A stretch of 64,000 bases of DNA from positions 4,158 to 68,157 of the IMG/VR virus record IMGVR_UViG_3300036859_000312. One strand, 5' to 3'. Under the pieces are notes generated by a model. That model had not been told where the DNA came from, made no database searches, and saw only the letters and a program-made list of their open reading frames with translations. The position numbers and the translations under genes were made by a program. Within the stretch, counting starts at the first letter, position 1. Every line of letters begins with the position of its first letter. Origin of the DNA: a virus. Positions 5,948 through 41,371 of the stretch are shown here, piece by piece.

Positions 5948-8688
5948 ATGGCCCGCCACGCGTTCGCCGTGAACCCTCCGCCTGTCCTGTTCGCCCCTCG
6001 GGGCTGTATCGGCGCCCTGAAAACGAACGGTGTGCCGTATATGGAGGCCCTGTTGTTCGAGCGGGGCGGGGCCCGTGCTGTGACGTTGCGGATCGGGCCG
6101 GGCGACTCGATGGAGCACCTGGACGGCGAACGCGTGGCGGGCGTGGATGAGCTGGTCTACGCGGCTAGCAGCTGGGTGAACGAACCCCGACAACTAGCCC
6201 TGGAGATCCCCGATGCTTGACGCAACACAGACCCAAGAGTTGCGCCGACGGGCCGCCCTGGAAGTGCAAGCGATTGAGGCGGGCATCGTGGCTCGTCGTG
6301 TCGTCCCGGCGATCTGTGACTCCATCGTCTACACCACGCACGCCCTGGCTGAGTTCATGGCCGGTGCTGTCGATGCAACTGGGGGCATCGACGATTTCCT
6401 GCTCATGTGGGATCTGTCTGATTTGTGGGAGAACGCCTGATGAGCATGATCACCGTTGCATCTTCGGACGAAGACCTACTGCCCGTCACGGTCGATTCGC
6501 TGATCGAAGCGGGCGTTAGCCACCTGGTCGGCTGGATGCAGGCATCCGGTGGCCTGTTCATTACCCCGCGTGTAGCTGATCAGCACTGGCTTTCCACAGC
6601 CAGGACGGTCACCCAGGTTGAGGAGATCCTGGGGCGTCCCTTATCAGGTGCCCGGTCGGTCCTGGACAAGGTCAGGGCAGATCCGTGGTGCCGGATCTCG
6701 GTCGATTGGAACGACGTTTGATGACCGACACCCCGCCCGAGGTGGCCGCGCTAGCGACGCATTACGTGTCCACCTATTGCATGCACGCCGCCGAATTGAC
6801 CGACACCGAGGGCGCCGAGGCGCTACATCGTGCCTGCCGCTTGTCGTGCAAGACGTGTGGTGAGGCGTGCCGCTGCTCGTGCGGCCACCCGTGGGCCGAA
6901 CTGGAGGAACGATGACCGACCGTTCGGACACCCCGACCGACGTCTGGATGTACCCCACCGACGCCGTCCCTCTCGCCCATAGGCCAGTTTCAGCGTGCCG
7001 CCAACCGGAATGGGGCCAGTACGTGTGGGAACTCGAATCGGCTCTGCGTTCCACCCTCGCCGACAACGAACGTCTGCGCCGCCAGTTGCAGTCCGTCGAC
7101 ACCGAACCGGAAGCGGACGATGCCTGACCCGACCCCCACCGTCACCCCCGGCCCACACGACGACCTGCTGGCCTGCGACCGTTCCGACACCGGCTACGAA
7201 GGTCCGACAGTGGGCGAACTCATCCGCAACCCACAGGATCTGTCGGAGGAGTCCGCCCGGGCGATCGAGGCGATGTACCGAGCGGTCTATGCGCGGTTGG
7301 CGACTGACCAGACCGCCCCCGCCACCCCCGGCCAGTGGGACGACGACCTACTCGACACGGTAGCCATTCATGTCGGATGGCTTCGCCGGGGCGGTTGCGA
7401 TGACCTGCGTCAAGCGGTCACCGACAACACCCAATCCGCCGACTATCTGGAACGCCTGGCGGCGGCTCTGCGTTCCCAGATCGCCGAGACCGACGAGCTG
7501 CTGGCTCTTCTGGGCAAGCGCCTCGCCCAACAGCACGAGGTCGACCGGCTGACCCGTGAGCTGGAGGCCCGTGCCGCTGCCCCCGAACCGCTGTGGCGGG
7601 GAACGACATCTGCGATCTTCAGCTTTGGTGAACCAGCGGAAGGCTCTGTGATCGACGGGCCTCGACTCGACGTCCCGCCCGGCACCGAGGTGGCCGTGTT
7701 CAGCGCCGACCAGCTGCCAACGACCGTCACCCGCGAGCAGGTGGCACCAGCAGTAGCTCGGACACTCGGCGAGACCTACCTGCCCGGAGAACGCAACACC
7801 CTCGCTGACTACGAGGCGGTCACCGACGCCGTCATGGCACTCCTGGAACGTAAGGGGAGCGCCGATGGCGATGAGGCCCGCCCGGAGGAACCCGCCGATG
7901 GCTGAGCCCTTCATCAACACGGAAGGCGCCGTTGCAGCCCTGCGTGCGTGGTCCTGTGACGCCGAGGTCATCGAGTTGTGCGACTCCCACGAGCAGCTGC
8001 GCATCCTCGTCGCCGAGCTGGAGGACATCGGCGCCGTCAAAGACGAACAGCACGCAGCGATGATAGCGGTGGCTCGCCGGTTGCTAGGCGACTGGTACCC
8101 CGACGACGCCGGCAACCGGTGGTGCAATCTCAGGACCGAGATCGACGACCCGCTCGTCTTCGAGCCGATGACCGACGTCGAACGCCAGACGCTCGACGCC
8201 CTGGAGGCCGACGATGGATAAGGCCTACGAGTACCGGGGCGAGCGGCGCTACATCGAGGGCGTCCCGTTCGGCGGCTGGCAGGAGACAGGCGACCACTAC
8301 GTGACCGGCGACGGCCCGCTGTGGGACGGCGACGTCGAGCTATACGACCCCCGCCAGTGGATCGCCGACCACCCGATGGAAGCACTCCGCGTGCTCTTCG
8401 GAAACGAAGCCGTCGACCGGTTTCTCGCCGACGCCGAGGAGCCCGGTGATGTGCGCTCACGGTGAGACAGTTCCAGTGCGAGTGAAGATCGATGCCGGTC
8501 TGTCCCACTCCGGCCGAACCGAATGGAAGGTAAAGCCAATCGACCGCTGCATTGCCGGTCTTGTCGCCGCGTTGCAGGGCGGAGGGATTGACATGCTCGG
8601 TTCCTGTTGCGGTCACGGCCGGAACCCTGGTGAGATCGCGCTGGCTGACGGGCGGATCTTGTCGCTCCCGATCGGAGAGCCCGGATGA
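5948..8688 (+). other. Run of coupled small hypothetical ORFs (5948-6220, 6213-6440, 6440-6721, 6721-6915, 6912-7127, 7120-7905, 7898-8221, 8214-8465, 8446-8688)
   Basis: Consecutive overlapping start/stop codons, typical of phage accessory operons. Confidence 0.65.
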
Positions 8689-17458: not shown

Positions 17459-18060
17459 CATCGATCACCCCAGGCGATGCCGGTACCCGCTGGATCGAAT
17501 ACGAGCCGGTCGGCTCCCTGAAACCCCACCCGGACAACCCCAAGGGTCACGCCCTCGACGCGCTGGTCGCCGCGGTCGAACGATTCGATTACACAGAACC
17601 TGTCCTCGTCTGTGAACGCACCGGCTACATCGCAGCCGGTCATGGCCGCACCGAAGCCATCATGCGTCGTCTTGCAGCGGGCGATCCTCCGCCCGATGGA
17701 GTGGCCGTCGCCGCGGACACGGGGGAATGGCTTGTCCCTGTGGTGCATGGCTGGTCCAGCACCGACGATGACGAACTGCGCTTCTACCTGTTCGCATCGA
17801 ACCATCTCGGGCCCGCGGGCGGCTGGATAAACGATGTCCTCGCGCCGCTCCTTCAGGATCTCGCCGAGGCCCCGGCCGGTCTGAACGGCACCGGTCTGAC
17901 CAGTGACAGTCTGGACGCCCTGCTCGCCGAGGTCACGCAACCCGACTTTCAACCAGTCGACCCCGCTGATCAGCCCCGCCTAGACCGCAAGTTTCACCTG
18001 GTCTGCAACAACTGCGGCGCTGCGGTTGATCCGGCAGCAGCCGAACGCGTCGAACAGTGA
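17455..18060 (+). CDS. ParB/Srx N-terminal domain protein
   Basis: LKPHPDNPKGH...EPVLV...IAAGHGR; C-terminal CxxC. Confidence 0.8.
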   Translation: MTSITPGDAGTRWIEYEPVGSLKPHPDNPKGHALDALVAAVERFDYTEPVLVCERTGYIAAGHGRTEAIMRRLAAGDPPPDGVAVAADTGEWLVPVVHGWSSTDDDELRFYLFASNHLGPAGGWINDVLAPLLQDLAEAPAGLNGTGLTSDSLDALLAEVTQPDFQPVDPADQPRLDRKFHLVCNNCGAAVDPAAAERVEQ

Positions 18061-18713
18061 CACTGCTGGTGGCGCCGTGTTCCCGCGACGCTGCCCTACA
18101 CGCCACCCGATGGTGGCACTACTCCCGATCCATGCCGCTAGGGCGGGTCATCTGCTACGGGGCCTGGTGGCAAGGCGAATTCAGAGGCGCTGTCGTCTAT
18201 GCCAGAGGCAACAACCGACATTTAGGCAAGCCCTACGGCCTGTCCGACAGCCGGCATGTCGTAGAGCTATGCCGCATCGCCCTGGACGATCACCCCGAGT
18301 TTCCTGTTACCCAGGTCGTCGCCCGAACCCTCAGCCAACTACAACACACCAACTCTGGACTACGGCTCGCCCTATCCTTTGCTGACCCTGAGCACGGCCA
18401 CGACGGTGCCATCTACCGGGCCGGGAACTGGATCTACTTAGGCCGCACAGAGCCCGTCCGTTACTTCTTGCATCGCGGCCGATGGGTGCACCAACGAGAC
18501 GTGACCGGCGCACCGCAGTTCCACAGTCGAGCATCAGGGATCCATCACCCCAATGTCGGCGGCAACCAGTCGCATATAGACATCGCGGCCCTCCCCTTCC
18601 GCGAGGCCTCCCCCAAGCACCGCTACGGCTACCCCTTCGACCGGGCCATGCGCCGCCAGTTGACCCATCTGTCAGTACCGTTCCCCGGGCAACGGTTGAA
18701 GATCGCTGAATGA
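18057..18713 (+). CDS. mom: Mom-family (GNAT) adenine-modification protein, copy 1
   Basis: HYS, ELCRIAL, SFADPEHGHDGAIYRAGNWIYLG, KHRY. Confidence 0.85.
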   Translation: MTLLVAPCSRDAALHATRWWHYSRSMPLGRVICYGAWWQGEFRGAVVYARGNNRHLGKPYGLSDSRHVVELCRIALDDHPEFPVTQVVARTLSQLQHTNSGLRLALSFADPEHGHDGAIYRAGNWIYLGRTEPVRYFLHRGRWVHQRDVTGAPQFHSRASGIHHPNVGGNQSHIDIAALPFREASPKHRYGYPFDRAMRRQLTHLSVPFPGQRLKIAE

Positions 18714-19389
18714 TGGATCAGCTGATCGTGGCCCCCTGTTCGCATGACGCCGCTAAGCACGCGGTGATGAACTGGCACTACAGCCGGGCCATGCCTACCG
18801 GCAAATTCGTGAAGCTAGGCGTTTGGGAAGACTCCCGATTCATCGGGGCAGTGCTATTTGGGCGGGGGCCGGCCCGTCAGCTCGGTAATCCGTTTGGGCC
18901 AGCCCGGTACAGGCCAGTGAGCTGGTCAAGGTTGCCTTAACAACTCACGACAACCCGACCAGCCAAATCGTTGCGAATGCTGTCGGAGTCCTACGAAGAT
19001 CCAACCCAGGGCTCCGGGTTTTGGTGTCGTTCGCTGATGAGGCCCAGGGCCATCATGGGACGCTCTATCAGGCGTTGAACTGGGTCTATACCGGATCGGT
19101 CTCCCAATCAGTGGTGTGTGTCCATGGACACCCAGTGCATAAGAAGAGCTTGTGGCGCCGCTATGGCACAGTCCGTATCGACTGGATACGCCAGAACGTG
19201 GATCCGCATGCGACGTGGGAGATGCAGCCGCCCAAGCATCGCTACGTGTTCCCTCTCGACCGGGCAATGCGTAAGACCGTGACTGCCATGGCATTACCGT
19301 ACCCACGCGGCCGAGGGCTCGAAGGTGAGCCGCTGGTGTCCCACACCAGAGGGGCGGGTTCGATCCCCGCCGGCCGCTCCATCCGTTAG
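18710..19389 (+). CDS. mom: Mom-family protein, copy 2, with a frame break near 18899
   Basis: N-half (HYS...LGNPFG) and C-half (SELVKVAL...SFADEAQGHHGTLYQALNW...KHRY) lie in frames offset by -1. Confidence 0.8.
19307..19381 (+). tRNA. Non-canonical tRNA-Gly(CCC) inside the mom-2 3' end
   Basis: GCGGCCG/CGGCCGC acceptor, U73 and encoded CCA; CTGGT-GTCCCAC-ACCAG; GCGGG-TTCGATC-CCCGC. Confidence 0.8.
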
Positions 19390-19394
19390 CGCGG

Positions 19395-19423
19395 TTGCGG
19401 TTCGGTGTTTCGCCGTGTACTGT
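19395..19423 (+). promoter_or_regulatory. Sigma-A-like promoter of the putative early operon
   Basis: TTGCGG-N17-TACTGT; the -35 lies inside an inverted copy of the 19-bp motif. Confidence 0.55.
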
Positions 19424-19473
19424 CGACGCATAGCCACTCAGGGGAGCCAACGGAGGCCCTTGGGGACAGGCCC

Positions 19474-19493
19474 GCTATTTGAAAAGCGAAGAG
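19474..19493 (+). promoter_or_regulatory. boxA-like antitermination element
   Basis: GCTATTTGAAAAGCGAAGAG resembles rrn/phage boxA; AT-rich island about 50 nt after the promoter. Confidence 0.4.
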
Positions 19494-19643
19494 ACGCAAG
19501 CAAGACGCATCAAGCGCGCGATCACACAAGATCTCGCTGCGTCGCAGATCACACCAGCCGGCAGCGGCCCGATAATGGGACCGCGGGGTGAGCACGAGCC
19601 CCCCAGTGGGGAGTGCATGGGACGATACCTACGACGCAGCATC

Positions 19644-19958
19644 GCAGGGCTTGGGCGAGGCCAAGACACAGAAACCGTTCGATGATGGCTGTCGACGTCC
19701 GCGCAGGACCGTAACCCGCCTTACGAGGTGGCTAACCGGACCCAACGACAGAGGCTTAGGACGGCAGACGGGCACTTAGGTGCCCCGGAGGCCCATGACC
19801 CCAAGCCTTGCTCGCATTCCCTGGCCTTTGGATGACACCCGCTCCGTGAGTCACGTTCAACGTCATCGAGCCTCCGGGCCATGGCAGGACATTGACCCCT
19901 CCGGTTTGGTGAGAAGCCCCCCGTGCCGGGGGATGCGAGCAGGGAGGACCCCTGCATT
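19644..19958 (+). ncRNA. Structured RNA element, copy 1
   Basis: 19644-55 pairs 19800-11; 19806-25 pairs 19925-44; terminal GCAGGG-AGGA-CCCCTGCA. Confidence 0.65.
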
Positions 19959-19976
19959 CCCGTGGAAAGGACCCCC

Positions 19977-20711
19977 ATGAACACCATTACTCACGTTCGC
20001 GCCAAGCTGTCTTGCCATCACACGGTCGAAGTTCCCGAAGGTCAGCCTGAAGGGGCGACGGTCGGATGCGAGAAGTGCCCTACCGGCAAGGACGGCGAAG
20101 TCCGCACGCGGCGCATCAAGCGCCTTCTGGGCGCCTGCCCGCCTCCCGAGGTCATTGAGACTGTCGGCAACATCAGTGACGGGCAAGTCGCCATCGCAAC
20201 CGTGCCGACCGAAGATGCTGAGCTGGTCGCCCAGCTGGAGGCCTCTATCGCAATGGTTGAGGCGGCCAGGCCTGCTGAGGGCCGTATGGAGCGCCTGGAG
20301 TTGGCCAAGGCAGAACACGAGGCCATAAAGGCGTGGAATGCAGCTGGCCGGAAAGGCTCCAAGCCCGTCACCCCCAACCTCGATGCGATGAACGCTGACT
20401 ACGCGGCGGGTGTGAAGCCCTCGAAACGGGCCAAGTCGTCCAACCCGCAGGTCACCCCCGTGCGCAAGGCCGGTCACCGGTTCTTTCGTCGTGGTAACCC
20501 GTTCACAGATCGGGAGAACAAGCTGTCCAACATCGCTTGGCAGGCCACGAAGGGCCTGGGCGAGAACGGAGGCCGCTTGGACACAGTGCAGCTCACCCAG
20601 CTGCTCGCCGACAACGGCATCACGGACCCGTATAACACCGAGTGGGCCCTGACGTTGGCGAACGGTGTCACGATCGAGGCCCGCATCCTCACCGATCAGC
20701 CTCCTGCCTGA
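19977..20711 (+). CDS. Hypothetical protein with N-terminal Zn ribbon
   Basis: LSCHH...CEKC; CCCGTGGAAAGGA RBS. Confidence 0.75.
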   Translation: MNTITHVRAKLSCHHTVEVPEGQPEGATVGCEKCPTGKDGEVRTRRIKRLLGACPPPEVIETVGNISDGQVAIATVPTEDAELVAQLEASIAMVEAARPAEGRMERLELAKAEHEAIKAWNAAGRKGSKPVTPNLDAMNADYAAGVKPSKRAKSSNPQVTPVRKAGHRFFRRGNPFTDRENKLSNIAWQATKGLGENGGRLDTVQLTQLLADNGITDPYNTEWALTLANGVTIEARILTDQPPA

Positions 20712-20813
20712 CACCCCATTGCCGCGGATCTGTTAGCGCGGCTACGGTAGGGTTCGCTTAGCAGCCGCACCCCTGGAGGGCGCCCCACCTACAACAGAAT
20801 TCCCCTAGCGAAC

Positions 20814-20940
20814 GCAGGGTCCGGGAGTTTCCCTGGATGGTCAGTCCCGGACCTTGCACGCAGCCACCAGCTGTCCGGTAAACGCGCACAGCCGGATCAC
20901 GAAGAGGTTGGTGGCTGCGTGCAGGGAGGACCCCTGCATT
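20814..20940 (+). ncRNA. Structured RNA element, copy 2
   Basis: 20814-26 pairs 20845-57; 20852-72 pairs 20906-26; terminal GCAGGG-AGGA-CCCCTGCA. Confidence 0.65.
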
Positions 20941-20963
20941 ATTTCCCGTGGAAAGGAATCAAC

Positions 20964-22034
20964 ATGCCCGCATTCTTCGATTGTGGTTTCTCGGTCCGTC
21001 AGCCCATGTGGCATGGCGCTGGTGTCGTCTTGGACGACTACCCCGAGGATTGGGATGCCGCCCGTCTGGCCGCTGGCCTGATGTGGGAACCCACCCCCAA
21101 GCCCGTCTATACGCAGCACCTGCTGACCGCCGTTCAGGCGGAGGCTCTGATCGCCGACGGTGGCGAAGCCCATCGAATCGACCAGCCGTCCTACTCGAAC
21201 CCGGACGCCAAGTACCGGTACATGGTCGCCGAATCCGACTTCCAGGCCATCGCCCGGGACGACACCGGCGACGTGCTGGCGGTGCCCGGTTCCGGTTTCA
21301 AGGCCGTGACTCACGCTCAGATGGGCGAGGTCATCGAAGCGGTCCTGGAATCCGATCAGGGCGTCAAGTTCGAGACCGCTGGCAGTTGCCGCGGTGGCCG
21401 CCAGGTGTGGGCGCTTGCCTACCTGGATGAGCCCTACCAGATCGGCGGAGACAGCAGCCCGATCTATCCGTTCCTGGCGTTCCTGAACGGCCATGACGGC
21501 TCGGCTGCCTGCAAGCTCCCGATCACCGACGTGCGGGTTGTGTGCTGGAATACCTGGAACGCAGCCGCTGCCCAGGGTGACCGCACAGGCGCCCAGTACG
21601 TGTTCAAGCACGTCGGGGACATCTCCCAGCACATCGAGGACGCCAAGGACGCCCTGAAGCAAGTGCGTGAGGACTCGAAGGCCACCCGGGCCCTGTTCGA
21701 GGAACTGGCCAAGGTCCCGGTGAACGACGATCAGGTCAAGACGTTCACGCAACTGTTCCTGCCGTCGCCGGCCGACAAAGGCGATTTCGTCTCGGAGCGT
21801 GTCGCCGGGAACATCGCCAAGGCACGGGCCAAGTTCATCCATCTGCATGACGAGGCGATCACGACCGACGGGATCCGCGGCACGGCCTACGGGCTGCTGC
21901 AAGCCTCTACCGAGTACCTCGACCATGTGCGTGGCTTCCGCAGCAACGACACCTACATGGGCCGCACGTTGCTGAAGCCCGAGAAGCTGAAGGCGGAGGC
22001 CTTGGCGCTGATCGGGGAGATCACGAGCAACTAG
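20964..22034 (+). CDS. DUF932 (TIGR03299-like) phage/plasmid protein
   Basis: MWHGAG...AGLMW, ETAGSCRGGRQVW, NGHDGS, RVVCWNT, GTAYGLLQA.TEY.DH. Confidence 0.85.
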   Translation: MPAFFDCGFSVRQPMWHGAGVVLDDYPEDWDAARLAAGLMWEPTPKPVYTQHLLTAVQAEALIADGGEAHRIDQPSYSNPDAKYRYMVAESDFQAIARDDTGDVLAVPGSGFKAVTHAQMGEVIEAVLESDQGVKFETAGSCRGGRQVWALAYLDEPYQIGGDSSPIYPFLAFLNGHDGSAACKLPITDVRVVCWNTWNAAAAQGDRTGAQYVFKHVGDISQHIEDAKDALKQVREDSKATRALFEELAKVPVNDDQVKTFTQLFLPSPADKGDFVSERVAGNIAKARAKFIHLHDEAITTDGIRGTAYGLLQASTEYLDHVRGFRSNDTYMGRTLLKPEKLKAEALALIGEITSN

Positions 22035-22047
22035 TTCCCCGCCACCA

Positions 22048-22153
22048 GCAGGGCACGGGACACCCCGTCCACGCCCCGTGCCCTGCGTGAGCTGTACCGA
22101 CCGGCATTACAGCGGACCGGTCGGTACAGCTCACGCAGGGAGTTCCCTTGCAT
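22048..22153 (+). ncRNA. Structured RNA element, copy 3
   Basis: 22048-59 pairs 22075-86; perfect 24-bp stem 22081-104/22117-140; terminal GCAGGG-AGTT-CCCTTGCA. Confidence 0.65.
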
Positions 22154-22299
22154 GCGAGACGCCCGGGTTGCTGATGCCGCGCAGCATTAGCCGTCGGGCT
22201 AGCACGATCGTGAAAGCACCCCTAACCGGACTCGCTGGATGATCCGGGCGCCTCGATATCAACCCCCAGCGATCACAACCCCCGTGGAAAGGACACCCA

Positions 22300-23268
22300 A
22301 TGCTCAACGACATCGCCAAGCTCCCCAAGTGGGCGCAGATACACATCCGCGATCAGGCAGCCAAGATCAGCCGCCTAGAGATTCAGGTCACGGACATACA
22401 GCTCGCCCGCAACGCGGGCGCGAGCGATACCGAAACGTTCGTGGACCACGTCATCCCCCATGACGACGACCCGCAACGCTTTCAGCGGCTGCCGCGAGGC
22501 GCACACATCGTGTGGTGGACAGGCGAGGGCTACCCCGTCCCGCACTTCGGCCGCATTGGCGCCTATTGGAACTTCAGCGAGCAGGCAGTGGTGCTCACTA
22601 CTTCCGGTGCGGGTCGTCTCTCGGTCGAACCGCAGATGAACAACTGCGTACTGATCCGGGAGACGGGCCGATGAGCGACGACCGCAACACCGAACGCCGT
22701 CAGCTTCGAGTCGTCAAGGTCGAGGGACTGCGAGACAGCGGCTGGGTGGAGGTCTCCGCTGATGACGGCGGAAACAACACGGTCACCTACACGACCACAG
22801 CCGACCGGGCGCCCCGTGTGGGCGTCAACGTCAGCGTCTACATCGAGGTCATCCGATGAACGCTCTCACAGCGATCGCTGAGGCCCGCGCCGAGTTGTCC
22901 GCTCTATCTCGCGGGCCCGGTATGGCCCTGACAGCCGACACCCCTTCGATCCGCTATGCCGGCCGTGACGGCTGGATAGCGGCCCGTAGTGGCGCTTTGG
23001 GCCCCGAGGCCCGGGTGTTCAGCACTCTGAGCCTGGCGTTCGCGTTCACAGAGGCTGCACGGTGATCGGCTACCAGCCCAGGCACATGGCGTCGTCTGAG
23101 ACGGCCTATGTTGCCTTGTGCGGCGATCGACAGGTCCGCCATAACGGCACCTTCCCGACGATCGGCCAGGCCGCTGACTGGACAATCAACGGCCTGTGTT
23201 GCCTCGGCCGTCATCGCGTCATCCTCGCGGATATGTGCCCGACTCAGCTCGGGACAGCCGACGGGTAG
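22300..23268 (+). other. Four small coupled ORFs (22300-22674, 22671-22859, 22856-23065, 23062-23268)
   Basis: ATGA/GTGA overlaps; CCCGTGGAAAGGA RBS at 22281. Confidence 0.65.
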
Positions 23269-23273
23269 CATCC

Positions 23274-23394
23274 CCTAAGACCGCTACCGGGCTTCCTCCG
23301 AGGTTCGGGCGGGCTCCTTCCACGGGAGTTAGACACACCCCCACGACCTGTGCCTCACCCGGCCCTCCAGTCGTGGGGGTGTGTCGCGTCTAGG
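23274..23394 (+). ncRNA. Cloverleaf-like candidate antisense sRNA
   Basis: Three hairpins (23287-308, 23313-329, 16-bp stem 23332-385) within a closing stem; loops are pyrimidine-rich and anti-SD-like. Confidence 0.5.
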
Positions 23395-23759
23395 CTTAAG
23401 CCCGTCTCACAACCATGAACCATGGAGCGGACGCGGGGGACACTGGTGCTTTCGCCTGGTGCCGCGGTGGTAGATGCGATGATCCGGCCACAGTGTGAAG
23501 GCCGGGGAGCCAAACCACTGAACCCCCGCACCTCTACTCTCAACACACATGCAACCCGACCCCTGAACTTCCAACACTCGGAGTATCCGATGATCCGTCG
23601 CCTTTGGTCTCGTCGGGCCCGCCGCCGGTTGCGGCGCCGGGCGATAGGGGTGCAGTTGCCACCCGAGCAGGCCGCTCAGCTGAACACGACAGCGTGGCGA
23701 CGGGCTGACGGCCAGGACGTTCGTGCGTCGACGTCACCGGTCCGTTACCGTCTGTGACC

Positions 23760-41171: not shown

Positions 41172-41371
41172 GGCCCGATCCTTTCCACGGGATAATCCCC
41201 CACCAGTGTAACCCCGGTAACGGGCGTGCGCGTGACAGATTGGTCTGTCTGAGGCATACTCGATGCCGTTCCCGCTGGGCTGGCGTAGCCGTCCCGGGAG
41301 ATAGCTCGACCTGGTCGAGTCGCTTACTTGAAGCACGCGCACTCCTGGGTGCGTTGTCGAGAGGAACCGAC

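Follow-up and report, generated by a model that had tools for sequence, protein, structure and literature searches.

The three elements between positions 19644 and 22151 of the window, as we call the whole 64,000-nucleotide stretch of viral DNA analysed here, are members of a cis-acting RNA family that is conserved in structure and variable in sequence, lies on the mRNA strand and is found mostly between cistrons. Together with 16 copies in six related metagenomic phage contigs, the family comprises 19 copies in seven contigs, all 19 on the gene strand, with two to five copies per contig clustered around a DUF932 gene. The carriers are uncultivated soil phages, high in GC and actinophage-like, that form a small clade. 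Across the copies, it is pairing and not primary sequence that is conserved. The element is a new structured RNA motif, and it probably controls the cutting, stability or translation of the message. As its preliminary description as unannotated implied, it has no Rfam match: a scan of the whole window at the Rfam 15 gathering thresholds returned only two tRNA matches, and an E-value scan of 19380-22320 gave 12 matches, all of them sub-threshold, the best of which (mir-486, 32.4 bits vs a gathering score of 69) reflects generic long-hairpin similarity.

All three window copies were located on the + strand, and they share the single grammar proposed for them, A1-x..x'-A'1-y..y'-A2-loop-A'2, in which A is GCAGGG and A' is CCYTGC. 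Copy 1 (W1, 19644..19955; covariance-model score 68.0 bits) has its hexamers at 19644-19649 (A1), 19806-11 (A'1) and 19939-44 (A2); its helix 1 joins 19644-19655 with 19800-19811 around a 144-nt insert, its extended helix 2 joins 19806-19825 with 19925-19944 around a 99-nt insert, and its helix 3 occupies 19939-19955, with the loop AGGAC. Copy 2 (W2, 20814..20937; 70.3 bits) is built from helix 1 (20814-20826 with 20845-20857), extended helix 2 (20852-20872 with 20906-20926) and helix 3 (20921-20937, loop AGGAC), and copy 3 (W3, 22048..22151; 67.4 bits) from helix 1 (22048-22059 with 22075-22086), a perfect 24-bp extended helix 2 (22081-22104 with 22117-22140) and helix 3 (22135-22151, loop AGTTC). 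Helix 1 measures 12, 13 and 12 bp in copies 1, 2 and 3, and helix 2, when extended through the hexamers, 20, 21 and 24 bp, matching the 12-13 and 20-24 bp given for them beforehand. The minimum-free-energy fold of each window copy consists of three directly abutting hairpins. In folding, copies 2 and 3 reach Z-scores of -6.1 and -7.4, with 0/200 shuffles folding as well, whereas the long inserts of copy 1 (144 and 99 nt) hold its Z-score at -1.0 (11/100 shuffles as good). The 19-nt tail pattern GCAGGGAGNNCCCYTGCAT has three matches in the window, all exact, vs 0.41 expected; in the 3-mismatch setting three matches were reached in 1/100 shuffles, and the whole 68,157-bp virus record holds three forward matches, none in reverse and none for the backward control. 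Pairing between the two loops, on the other hand, did not survive as a common feature: it is marginal in copy 1, where a 9-bp Watson-Crick run was matched by 11/300 shuffles, and no better than chance in copies 2 and 3 (the best run in copy 2, 4 bp, was matched by 267/300 shuffles).

Structure modelling indicates that the four short segments (A1, A'1, A2 and A'2) and the two variable stems (x and y) allow two folds. In the modelled fold A, three hairpins abut coaxially, H1 being A1x:x'A'1, H2 being y:y' and H3 being A2:A'2; in fold B, predicted to be a closed three-way junction, A1:A'2 would close the structure, and its arms would be x:x' and a gap-free A'1y:y'A2 helix of about 21 bp. There are no unpaired junction nucleotides in fold A and only a linker of 4-6 nt in fold B. 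The mutually exclusive folds with competing pairings described at the outset are real, lying 2.3-2.7 kcal/mol apart in the window copies; the calculated ddG(B-A) values were +2.5, +2.3, +2.7, +2.1, +1.4, -4.0, +5.2, +2.6, -1.4, -0.8, +0.6, -2.5 and -1.0 kcal/mol. The energies are nearly equal because A1 resembles A2 and A'1 resembles A'2, and the bistability itself may be a by-product of this resemblance.

A covariance model and a search of related phage loci, proposed from the start among the ways to check the element, brought out both further copies and strong covariation in the homologous copies. The model was seeded with 12 copies and run against 415,004 bases in 81 loci, a set that leaves out L001-L016, L037, L070, L098, L100-L107 and L108-L227 (L037 and L070 being duplicates of L019 and L018); it found five further copies at E<0.01, and two more variants were recognised by folding only. 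The 12-row alignment (labelled A2, like the segment) omits the five later-found copies, L021 at 6122 and L021 at 3893, the last of which follows the hexamer grammar only loosely, and alignment A3 omits, among others, copy 1 and L024 at 813, both with long inserts. The hexamer varies between phages and even within one (GCAGGG, GCTGGG, GCGGGG, ACGGGG, CCGGGG, CGCGG). Sequence conservation is confined to H3 and the hexamers, with GGGAG invariant in the 12-copy alignment; the H3 loop starts with AGG in 16/19 copies, as does the fold B linker, and the surroundings of the loop are Shine-Dalgarno-like (GGGAGG) in 16/19. When 19400-22400 was compared at the nucleotide level with 50,697 phage records, neither near nor distant mode gave a match. 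The exact tail pattern occurs at 13 loci of the viral contig collection, all coding or unrelated and none with the hairpins, a number close to what a rough estimate gives for chance; two gapped patterns gave 10 loci in the same collection, of which only L099, which shares its contig with L021, holds a true copy. A gapped pattern hit at least 120 loci in the genome contig collection, with no prophage copy or host among the matches listed, and the best extended helix 2 at the 132 tail sites of those listed matches has 13 bp, at a low-GC, unrelated locus. A generic search for long hairpins with a short hairpin behind them returned mostly noise with stems of at least 11 bp (186 + vs 223 - matches); with stems of at least 15 bp the gene strand dominates, 18 vs 5.

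The pairing is conserved well beyond chance. In the extended helix 2, 97.4% of 231 cells are paired, compared with 69.0+/-2.1 in shuffles (0/500 reach this value) and 39-49% in slid controls, and both sides have changed in 16 of the 20 pairs. Helix 1 is 89.3% paired vs 76.6%, with 7/13 pairs changed on both sides (0/500 shuffles), and helix 3 is 94.4% paired vs 85.7% (0/500 shuffles, for paired cells and for score), the number of its pairs changed on both sides being reached by 77/500 shuffles. Without gaps, the extended helix 2 is 20, 21, 24, 21, 21, 23, 22, 28, 12, 19, 22, 20 and 20 bp long, that is, 19-24 bp in 11/13 measured copies, with 28 bp and, in L024 at 979, only 12 bp in the other two; its length stays while the inner loops span 3 to 99 nt. 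The A'1:A2 pairing is 6/6 in all 12 tabulated copies. Column 138, within segment A2, covaries with A'1 (UA:8 CG:3 GU:1) as well as with A'2 (AU:7 GC:3 UG:1), and five of the ten aligned copies leave position 6 of A1 unpaired. Over 273 positions of the extended helix 2 there are 27 G.U pairs vs 1 A.C and 2 C.U, which points to RNA of the + strand. Every non-Watson-Crick pair in the core helices of the window is a G.U on that strand, as had been claimed (three, three and none in the extended helix 2, and one, one and none in helix 1, of copies 1, 2 and 3); helix 3 of copy 3 also has one G.U pair. The suggested selection at the RNA level, on the + strand, is thus supported by the covariation together with the G.U excess. 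Of the outcomes named beforehand as refuting the element, namely a known Rfam family, homologues that do not covary, and a single fold without effect on processing or expression, none was encountered. Covariance-model scores are 46-70 bits for the 12 seeds and 31-49 for the five new copies on the + strand, and 22-37 bits when the copy sites are read on the - strand.

The extended RBS 13-mer CCCGTGGAAAGGA occurs exactly four times in the window, and its three + strand sites lie 5-6 nt before an ATG: 19959..19971, 5 nt before the ATG at 19977 of a 244-aa gene with a Cys/His-rich N-terminus and no family match; 20945..20957, 6 nt before the ATG at 20964 of the DUF932 gene (20964-22034; 75-76% identity to its closest three relatives); and 22281..22293, 6 nt before the ATG at 22300 of a DUF7239 gene. 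The related contig L021 has five sites of CAACCCCGTGGARG. The element had been said to end 0-4 nt before the RBS; copies 1 and 2 do lie near the 13-mer (1 and 5 nt), but copy 3 does not, ending 127 nt away (129 nt from its last paired base). Copy 3 starts 13 nt past the DUF932 stop codon, and in the family as a whole the upstream stop codon lies within 18 nt of A1 in 14/19 copies and within 8 nt in 8/19. The next start codon is within 30 nt (15-29 nt past A'2) in 9/19 copies by script, or in 11/19 after two mis-called cases were read by eye, and 56-160 nt away in 8/19. No gene directly precedes copies 1 and 2 (distances of 52 and 102 nt), and upstream of each lies a candidate operator or promoter motif, so these two may sit in 5' leaders and not between cistrons. 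A 22-codon uORF (19617-19685) reads across A1 of copy 1; near A1 of copy 2 no uORF ends, the frame being open to the TAG at 20806-20808 without ATG, GTG or TTG. The genes were placed between the Mom/helicase genes and the terminase genes, and their designation as an early operon was not substantiated. The notion of DUF932 as a typical leading-region gene of plasmids found no support, the term occurring 0 times in the available part of PMC11541004.

As to function, we tentatively favour an RNase III-type module for intercistronic processing and stability. Of the four functions offered for the element beforehand, an RNase III array fits the anatomy best, with its gap-free helix of about 21 bp and intercistronic position. 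A ribozyme has the lowest likelihood of the four: fold A is devoid of unpaired junction nucleotides, fold B offers only the 4-6-nt linker, and there is no match to a ribozyme family. At about two helical turns, the long helix in fold B would be a substrate for the double-strand-specific RNase III of the host, an enzyme whose presence is assumed from general knowledge of Actinobacteria. Cleavage would separate the upstream from the downstream cistrons. A'1 could then fall back on A1, the full H1 becoming a protective 3'-terminal hairpin on the upstream RNA, and A2 could fall back on A'2, H3 becoming a hairpin near the 5' end and ahead of the downstream RBS. The redundancy of the hexamers would in this way combine in one module a cleavage site and two end-protecting hairpins, through which the stability and expression of neighbouring genes would be set relative to each other. 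The helix of about two turns is present, and in 14/19 copies the stop-to-element spacing would suit an intercistronic position.

The RNase III sites of the T7 early mRNA are a precedent for intercistronic processing. Processing signals of this kind are reportedly found between the early genes of coliphage T7 (R0.3-R1.3) and in Bacillus phage SP82, and cleavage at the T7 and SP82 sites leaves a protective 3' hairpin. Like them, the present elements are structured hairpins with a helix about two turns long, and they would lie between a stop codon and the next RBS of one polycistronic phage message. Unlike them, they have a third hairpin and four exchangeable hexamers, which give two folds, and they belong to phages of high-GC, actinobacteria-like hosts; there is no sequence or Rfam relationship, and cleavage is here predicted only. 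T7-type sites are interrupted by an internal bubble, whereas the helices described here are perfect, which counts against the RNase III model, as does the AGG start of the loop in 16/19 copies, which it leaves unexplained. Also against it are the 12-bp helix of L024 at 979, the loose grammar of L021 at 3893, the possible leader position of copies 1 and 2 and the chance that bistability is a by-product. A reference on the RNase III processing of coaxially stacked helices is given in the accessible part of PMC6212723.

It is possible, if doubtful, that the four exchangeable segments have been selected as an RNA strand-exchange (branch-migration) switch between the three-hairpin stack and the closed three-way junction. 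At the same doubtful level, such a switch may relay a signal, either a ribosome terminating at A1 or the cutting of helix 2, over 100-300 nt to the next RBS, and may recur ahead of every gene in a phage accessory operon; possibly it works together with a conserved anti-RBS RNA, at 23314-23326, at the operon end. Like attenuators and the expression platforms of riboswitches, which alternate between 1:2/3:4 and 2:3 pairing, the element has in A2 a segment with two mutually exclusive, conserved partners. Unlike them, it has no U-tract terminator, no consistent Shine-Dalgarno sequestration and no recognisable aptamer or leader peptide, save possibly the copy 1 uORF, and in fold B its outer segments, once displaced, join in a pairing that closes a three-way junction. 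When fold A, fold B, fold B without A1 and the cut 3' product were compared in the eight RBS-adjacent copies, the unpaired probability of positions -16..-4 was 0.24-0.69 with no trend across the states, in a script that mis-picked at least one start codon. A switch that sequesters the Shine-Dalgarno sequence was rejected on this lack of a consistent difference between folds.

A ribosome-driven conformational relay for translational coupling seems unlikely, although several features would suit it. A ribosome terminating upstream would melt A1, A'1 would then pair with A2, and A'2 would be freed beside the downstream RBS; in a variant, fold B would bring the stop codon and the next start together for re-initiation across a gap of 100-300 nt. 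The stop codons close to A1 (within 18 nt in 14/19 copies, within 8 nt in 8/19), the start codons 15-29 nt past A'2 in 9-11/19, the covariation of A2 with both partners, the A1 clamp weakened by the unpaired position 6 in half of the aligned copies, the copy 1 uORF that crosses A1 and the GGGAGG around the H3 loop all agree with such a relay. However, RBS accessibility does not differ consistently among the folds, neither an upstream ORF nor a uORF comes to an end near A1 in copy 2, and 8/19 copies lie 56-160 nt from the next start codon.

That the element is a binding site for a phage or host RNA-binding protein, either a translational operator or a boxB-like antiterminator hairpin, we consider distinctly unlikely. 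The target of the protein would be the GCAGGG:CCYUGC helix or else the H3 loop with its AGG start, and the long stems would be scaffolds. Such recognition would be consistent with the restriction of sequence conservation to H3 and the hexamers, with the spacing of 1-10 nt from H3 to the extended RBS behind it in copies adjacent to an RBS, with the display of two copies of one 6-bp helix by either fold, and with the neighbouring 244-aa gene and its Cys/His-rich N-terminus. Yet the variation of the hexamer between and within phages speaks more for pairing than for sequence-specific recognition, no protein emerged as a candidate, and the 2-5 copies per genome stand before individual genes, unlike nut and put sites, which follow promoters.

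Very little likelihood attaches to a plain hairpin cluster that acts as a factor-independent terminator or a barrier to 3' exonucleases, the alternative pairing being functionless. GC-rich, very stable hairpins do directly follow stop codons in 14/19 copies, the 56-160 nt after copy 3 and four to seven relatives could hold a promoter, and termination by hairpin clusters has reportedly been proposed (PMC8355165). However, a T-rich run, read by eye, follows only one of the 19 copies (copy 2, ATTATTT), and a scan of the + strand of 18700-22700 found no terminator-like site, on which grounds an intrinsic (L-shaped) terminator was rejected; the mycobacterial RNA polymerase requires a U-tract, to go by the title of PMC3993855; a stop before an RBS without room for a promoter (9-11/19 copies) would silence the next gene; and the dual covariation of A2 would go unexplained.

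A DNA-level feature (a cruciform or operator, a single-strand promoter of the Frpo or N4 type, or a REP/MITE-like mobile palindrome) is highly improbable, since the alternating orientation of the hexamers, the 6-7-bp stem and 3-5-nt loop of helix 3 and the slightly better folding of copy 3 on the - strand (-77.1 vs -73.5 kcal/mol) stand against a G.U excess specific to the coding strand (a template-strand hairpin promoter needs pairing on the other strand), the lack of a -35/-10-like site inside the elements and a hexamer that is not fixed. Enterobacterial REP/BIME sequences are intergenic palindromes within operons that alternate in orientation and can stabilise upstream mRNA. The present elements are likewise intergenic hairpins in operons with alternating orientation; unlike REP, where copies of one sequence recur, only 6-nt segments recur here and the stems are unique to each copy, so these are not copies of a mobile element. 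A REP/MITE-type repeated palindrome was also rejected by a blastn comparison of 19380-22320 with the 81 related loci, which matched only in coding sequence and in the RBS just before the DUF932 start. Frpo is defined, in the available part of PMC11541004, by -35 and -10 boxes in its stem; a Frpo/ssi single-strand promoter was rejected, the elements having no promoter-like site within them and their wobble pairs on the coding strand.

The nearest parallel among actinobacteriophages is the SAS, or start-associated sequence, of Cluster K mycobacteriophages, a conserved 13-nt motif a few bases before a subset of start codons (Pope et al. 2011, PMC3203893; this and what follows on it come from part of that paper). 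Directly ahead of many SAS sites stands an inverted repeat whose spacer varies, the extended SAS or ESAS. Its arms, 17 bp long, share a conserved consensus, and the authors saw little support for mRNA hairpins. The 13-bp asymmetric motif described here also stands a few bp before several starts, again with inverted-repeat arms directly ahead of many of its sites, and its sequence (CCCGTGGAAAGGA) differs. Unlike the ESAS arms, those of the present element are unrelated between copies and kept complementary through changes on both sides (16/20 pairs); with arms that covary in place of 17-bp shared-consensus repeats without compensatory change, the element was not assigned to SAS/ESAS.

Post-transcriptional control in actinobacteriophages is almost unexplored, and SAS/ESAS, the one comparable repeated feature, has had no assigned function since 2011, as far as the available part of PMC3203893 goes. 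The element described here is a compact, highly covarying RNA with two folds, each of which can be locked by mutation, and it recurs before several genes per genome. A role as an RNase III module would carry the T7 paradigm over to high-GC hosts and offer a portable part with which the genes of an operon could be expressed at set ratios. A functional strand exchange would make the element a natural RNA switch of a new type, representing an undescribed class of intercistronic riboregulator.

Folding resolved each of the three stretches singled out in the preliminary description (copies 1, 2 and 3, at 19644-19955, 20814-20937 and 22048-22151 on the + strand) into three hairpins with no spacers between them, in the order A1-x...x'-A'1-y...y'-A2-loop-A'2, where A is GCAGGG and A' is CCYTGC in the window copies and x/x' and y/y' are variable stem arms. 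Helix 1 (A1x:x'A'1) measures 12-13 bp and helix 2, when extended through the hexamers (A'1y:y'A2), 20, 21 and 24 bp, in line with the 12-13 and 20-24 bp first reported, while helix 3 (A2:A'2) has 6 bp closing a loop of 5 nt. The entire virus record contains exactly three instances of the 19-nt tail, with none on the opposite strand. Relative to shuffled sequences, copies 2 and 3 are much more stably folded (z -6.1 and -7.4, respectively); copy 1 has no clear advantage over shuffles (z -1.0), because long inserts sit in both its helices. A perfect 20-bp inverted repeat with arms 152 nt apart, at 5951-6142 (+), was ruled out as a family member, as it has neither helix 3 nor the hexamers.

Relatives of the neighbouring DUF932 protein led to 6 loci from viral contigs and 74 from metagenomes, which were searched with a script for hairpin chains, by folding and with a covariance model. 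The same architecture was found in six more contigs (L018 (= L070), L021 (= L099), L024, L025, L026 and L027), whose DUF932 proteins are 53-58% identical to that of the window. With the window included, the total is 19 copies across 7 contigs. Each contig has 2-5, always on the gene strand and at most a few kb from DUF932. The covariance model, comprising 20 base pairs and built from 12 seed copies, gave these seeds 46-70 bits and the - strand reading of the same places 22-37 bits; in 415,004 bases it added five new copies at E-values of 2.6e-6 to 4e-3, which are rough owing to a shortened calibration. Two copies, one in L018 and one in L027, have the same stem and loop in helix 1 (L018 5621-5656 and L027 3731-3770; CCCGGGCC-ACACCGCC-GGCCCGGG) and differ outside it. 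In more distant DUF932 phages (45-47% identity), a long hairpin lies ahead of the same gene (L019/L037 316-371, L020 ~1940-1990, L036 ~1440-1500); its 3' arm overlaps by 4 nt a short hairpin, RGTGCC-ACTC/GATC-GGCAYY, followed by a CAACC-rich spacer and then the RBS. Such hairpins possibly form a second subfamily, now diverged, built on the same principle of competing helices.

Primary sequence shows no conservation: when 19380-22320 was compared with 81 loci by blastn, nothing aligned beyond coding sequence and the RBS that immediately precedes the start of DUF932. Pairing is conserved. In extended helix 2, 97.4% of 231 cells are paired, compared with 69.0+/-2.1 in shuffles (0/500 reach this value) and 39-49% in slid controls, and both sides have changed in 16 of 20 pairs. 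Helix 1 is paired in 89.3% of 122 cells (shuffled 76.6; 0/500), with both sides changed in 7 of 13 pairs. Helix 3, three rows of which are out of register (4- or 6-nt loops), is paired in 94.4% of 71 cells (shuffled 85.7; 0/500), with just two pairs changed on both sides, a number matched by 77/500 shuffles. The 273 positions of extended helix 2 hold 27 G.U pairs against one A.C and two C.U mismatches, a ratio that a strand-symmetric DNA palindrome would not produce. We are thus highly confident that the structure is one of RNA and belongs to the mRNA strand. The selection at the RNA level first proposed from three copies is borne out by the conserved pairing and the G.U excess; the covariance model then suggested was built, and homologous copies show pairs changed on both sides.

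The hexamers themselves vary (GCAGGG/CCYTGC, GCTGGG/CCTGGC+CCCGGC, GCGGGG/CCCCGC, ACGGGG/CCTCGT, CCGGGG/CCCCGG, CGCGG/CCGCGG), yet the complementarity of A2 to both A'1 and A'2 is kept, and in the alignment columns 4 and 150 each covary with column 138. Every one of the 12 tabulated copies has A'1:A2 paired 6/6; for A1:A'1 the figure is 6/6 in four copies and 5/6 in six, and 5 of the 10 copies aligned leave A1 position 6 unpaired. Constrained folding imposed helix 3 to give fold A (three abutting hairpins) and A'1:A2 to give fold B. A1, displaced in the latter, pairs with A'2 and closes a three-way junction in which the strand that was the helix 3 loop is the only one left unpaired. The computed B-A energies (+2.5, +2.3, +2.7, +2.1, +1.4, -4.0, +5.2, +2.6, -1.4, -0.8, +0.6, -2.5 and -1.0 kcal/mol) put the two mutually exclusive folds envisaged earlier at nearly equal stability. 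This near-equality is an arithmetic consequence of A1 resembling A2 and A'1 resembling A'2.

The window spans 4158-68157 in an IMG/VR virus record 68,157 bp long and is high in GC. Its DUF932 protein is less than 60% identical to all 513 records from cultured actinophages (best 35%, Microbacterium phages), and 19400-22400 has no nucleotide-level match among cultured phages. The element-bearing genes encode a 244-aa protein without a family match, DUF932, and DUF7239 with its followers; with helicase/Mom genes on one side of them and the small and large terminase genes on the other, their description as an early operon is not established. A tRNA call at 19307-19378 (+), directly 3' of the Mom-family gene (18057-18713), was made by Rfam (43.5 bits) and not by ARAGORN. 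The element precedes all five extended-RBS sites of L021 (CAACCCCGTGGARG) and three of the four in the window, this RBS being a 13-mer that lies 5-6 nt before the ATG at its three + strand sites in the window. Matches to GYAAC-N4-STAAC on the - strand at 19385-19398 and 20732-20745, read as GTTAGCGCGGYTRC on the + strand, lie ~260 nt upstream of copy 1 and ~70 nt upstream of copy 2; because this motif recurs at gene boundaries, both copies may be placed in 5' leaders. Genome-wide it has 157 matches at <=2 mismatches (93+/-11 expected), and exact copies stand at several gene boundaries, and one precedes the fourth 13-mer (41179-41191, -) by ~20 nt. At 23314-23326 (+), inside a well-folding region (23270-23400, z -4.6), stands CTCCTTCCACGGG, the extended RBS in reverse complement, and an equivalent, CCCTTCCACGGGG, is present at L021 6648-6660, right after its last extended-RBS gene; together they suggest a conserved anti-RBS RNA at the operon end.

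Among candidate functions, RNase III-type processing fits best, and we propose it tentatively. Length is tightly constrained only at the gap-free base of extended helix 2, which measures 19-24 bp in 11 of 13 copies; what lies inside it can be as small as a 3-nt loop or as large as a 99-nt insert. A ribosome-driven coupling relay appears unlikely. It is favoured by the short gaps between stop codon and A1 (crude ORF calling puts an upstream stop within 18 nt of the element in 14 of 19 copies) and by the weakness of A1's sixth pair. On the other side, RBS accessibility as computed shows no consistent change between the folds, and copy 2 has no upstream ORF. The same crude calling places a start codon no more than 30 nt downstream in 9 of 19 copies, a count that rises to 11 of 19 once two mis-calls are corrected by eye; in the remaining copies the next start is 56-160 nt off. 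The helix 3 loop begins with AGG in 16 of 19 copies, creating a Shine-Dalgarno-like GGGAGG, and in copy 1 a putative 22-codon uORF (MGRYLRRSIAGLGRGQDTETVR; 19617-19685, +), with GGGGAG 4 nt upstream, runs through A1 and the helix 1 5' arm. A protein-binding site fits less of the evidence and seems distinctly unlikely. The same holds for a terminator or exonuclease barrier, which we regard as very unlikely; a T-rich run follows only 1 of 19 copies, and a terminator scan found none on the + strand. Readings at the DNA level also account for less of the evidence and are highly improbable.

A match to a known Rfam family, which the preliminary description had held would count against it, was sought and not found. 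In the literature on start-associated repeated features of actinophages and on phage mRNA processing and terminators, in a search that took in only a minority of subscription journals, SAS/ESAS alone was comparable. The ESAS feature has a conserved consensus and no compensatory change (PMC3203893), unlike the covarying arms of the element. The element is classed with structured intercistronic or leader mRNA elements having alternative pairing. Its intercistronic position would suit RNase III-type processing, in which a cut would yield two products, and the redundancy of the hexamers would then let helix 1 and helix 3 re-form, leaving a terminal protective hairpin on each.
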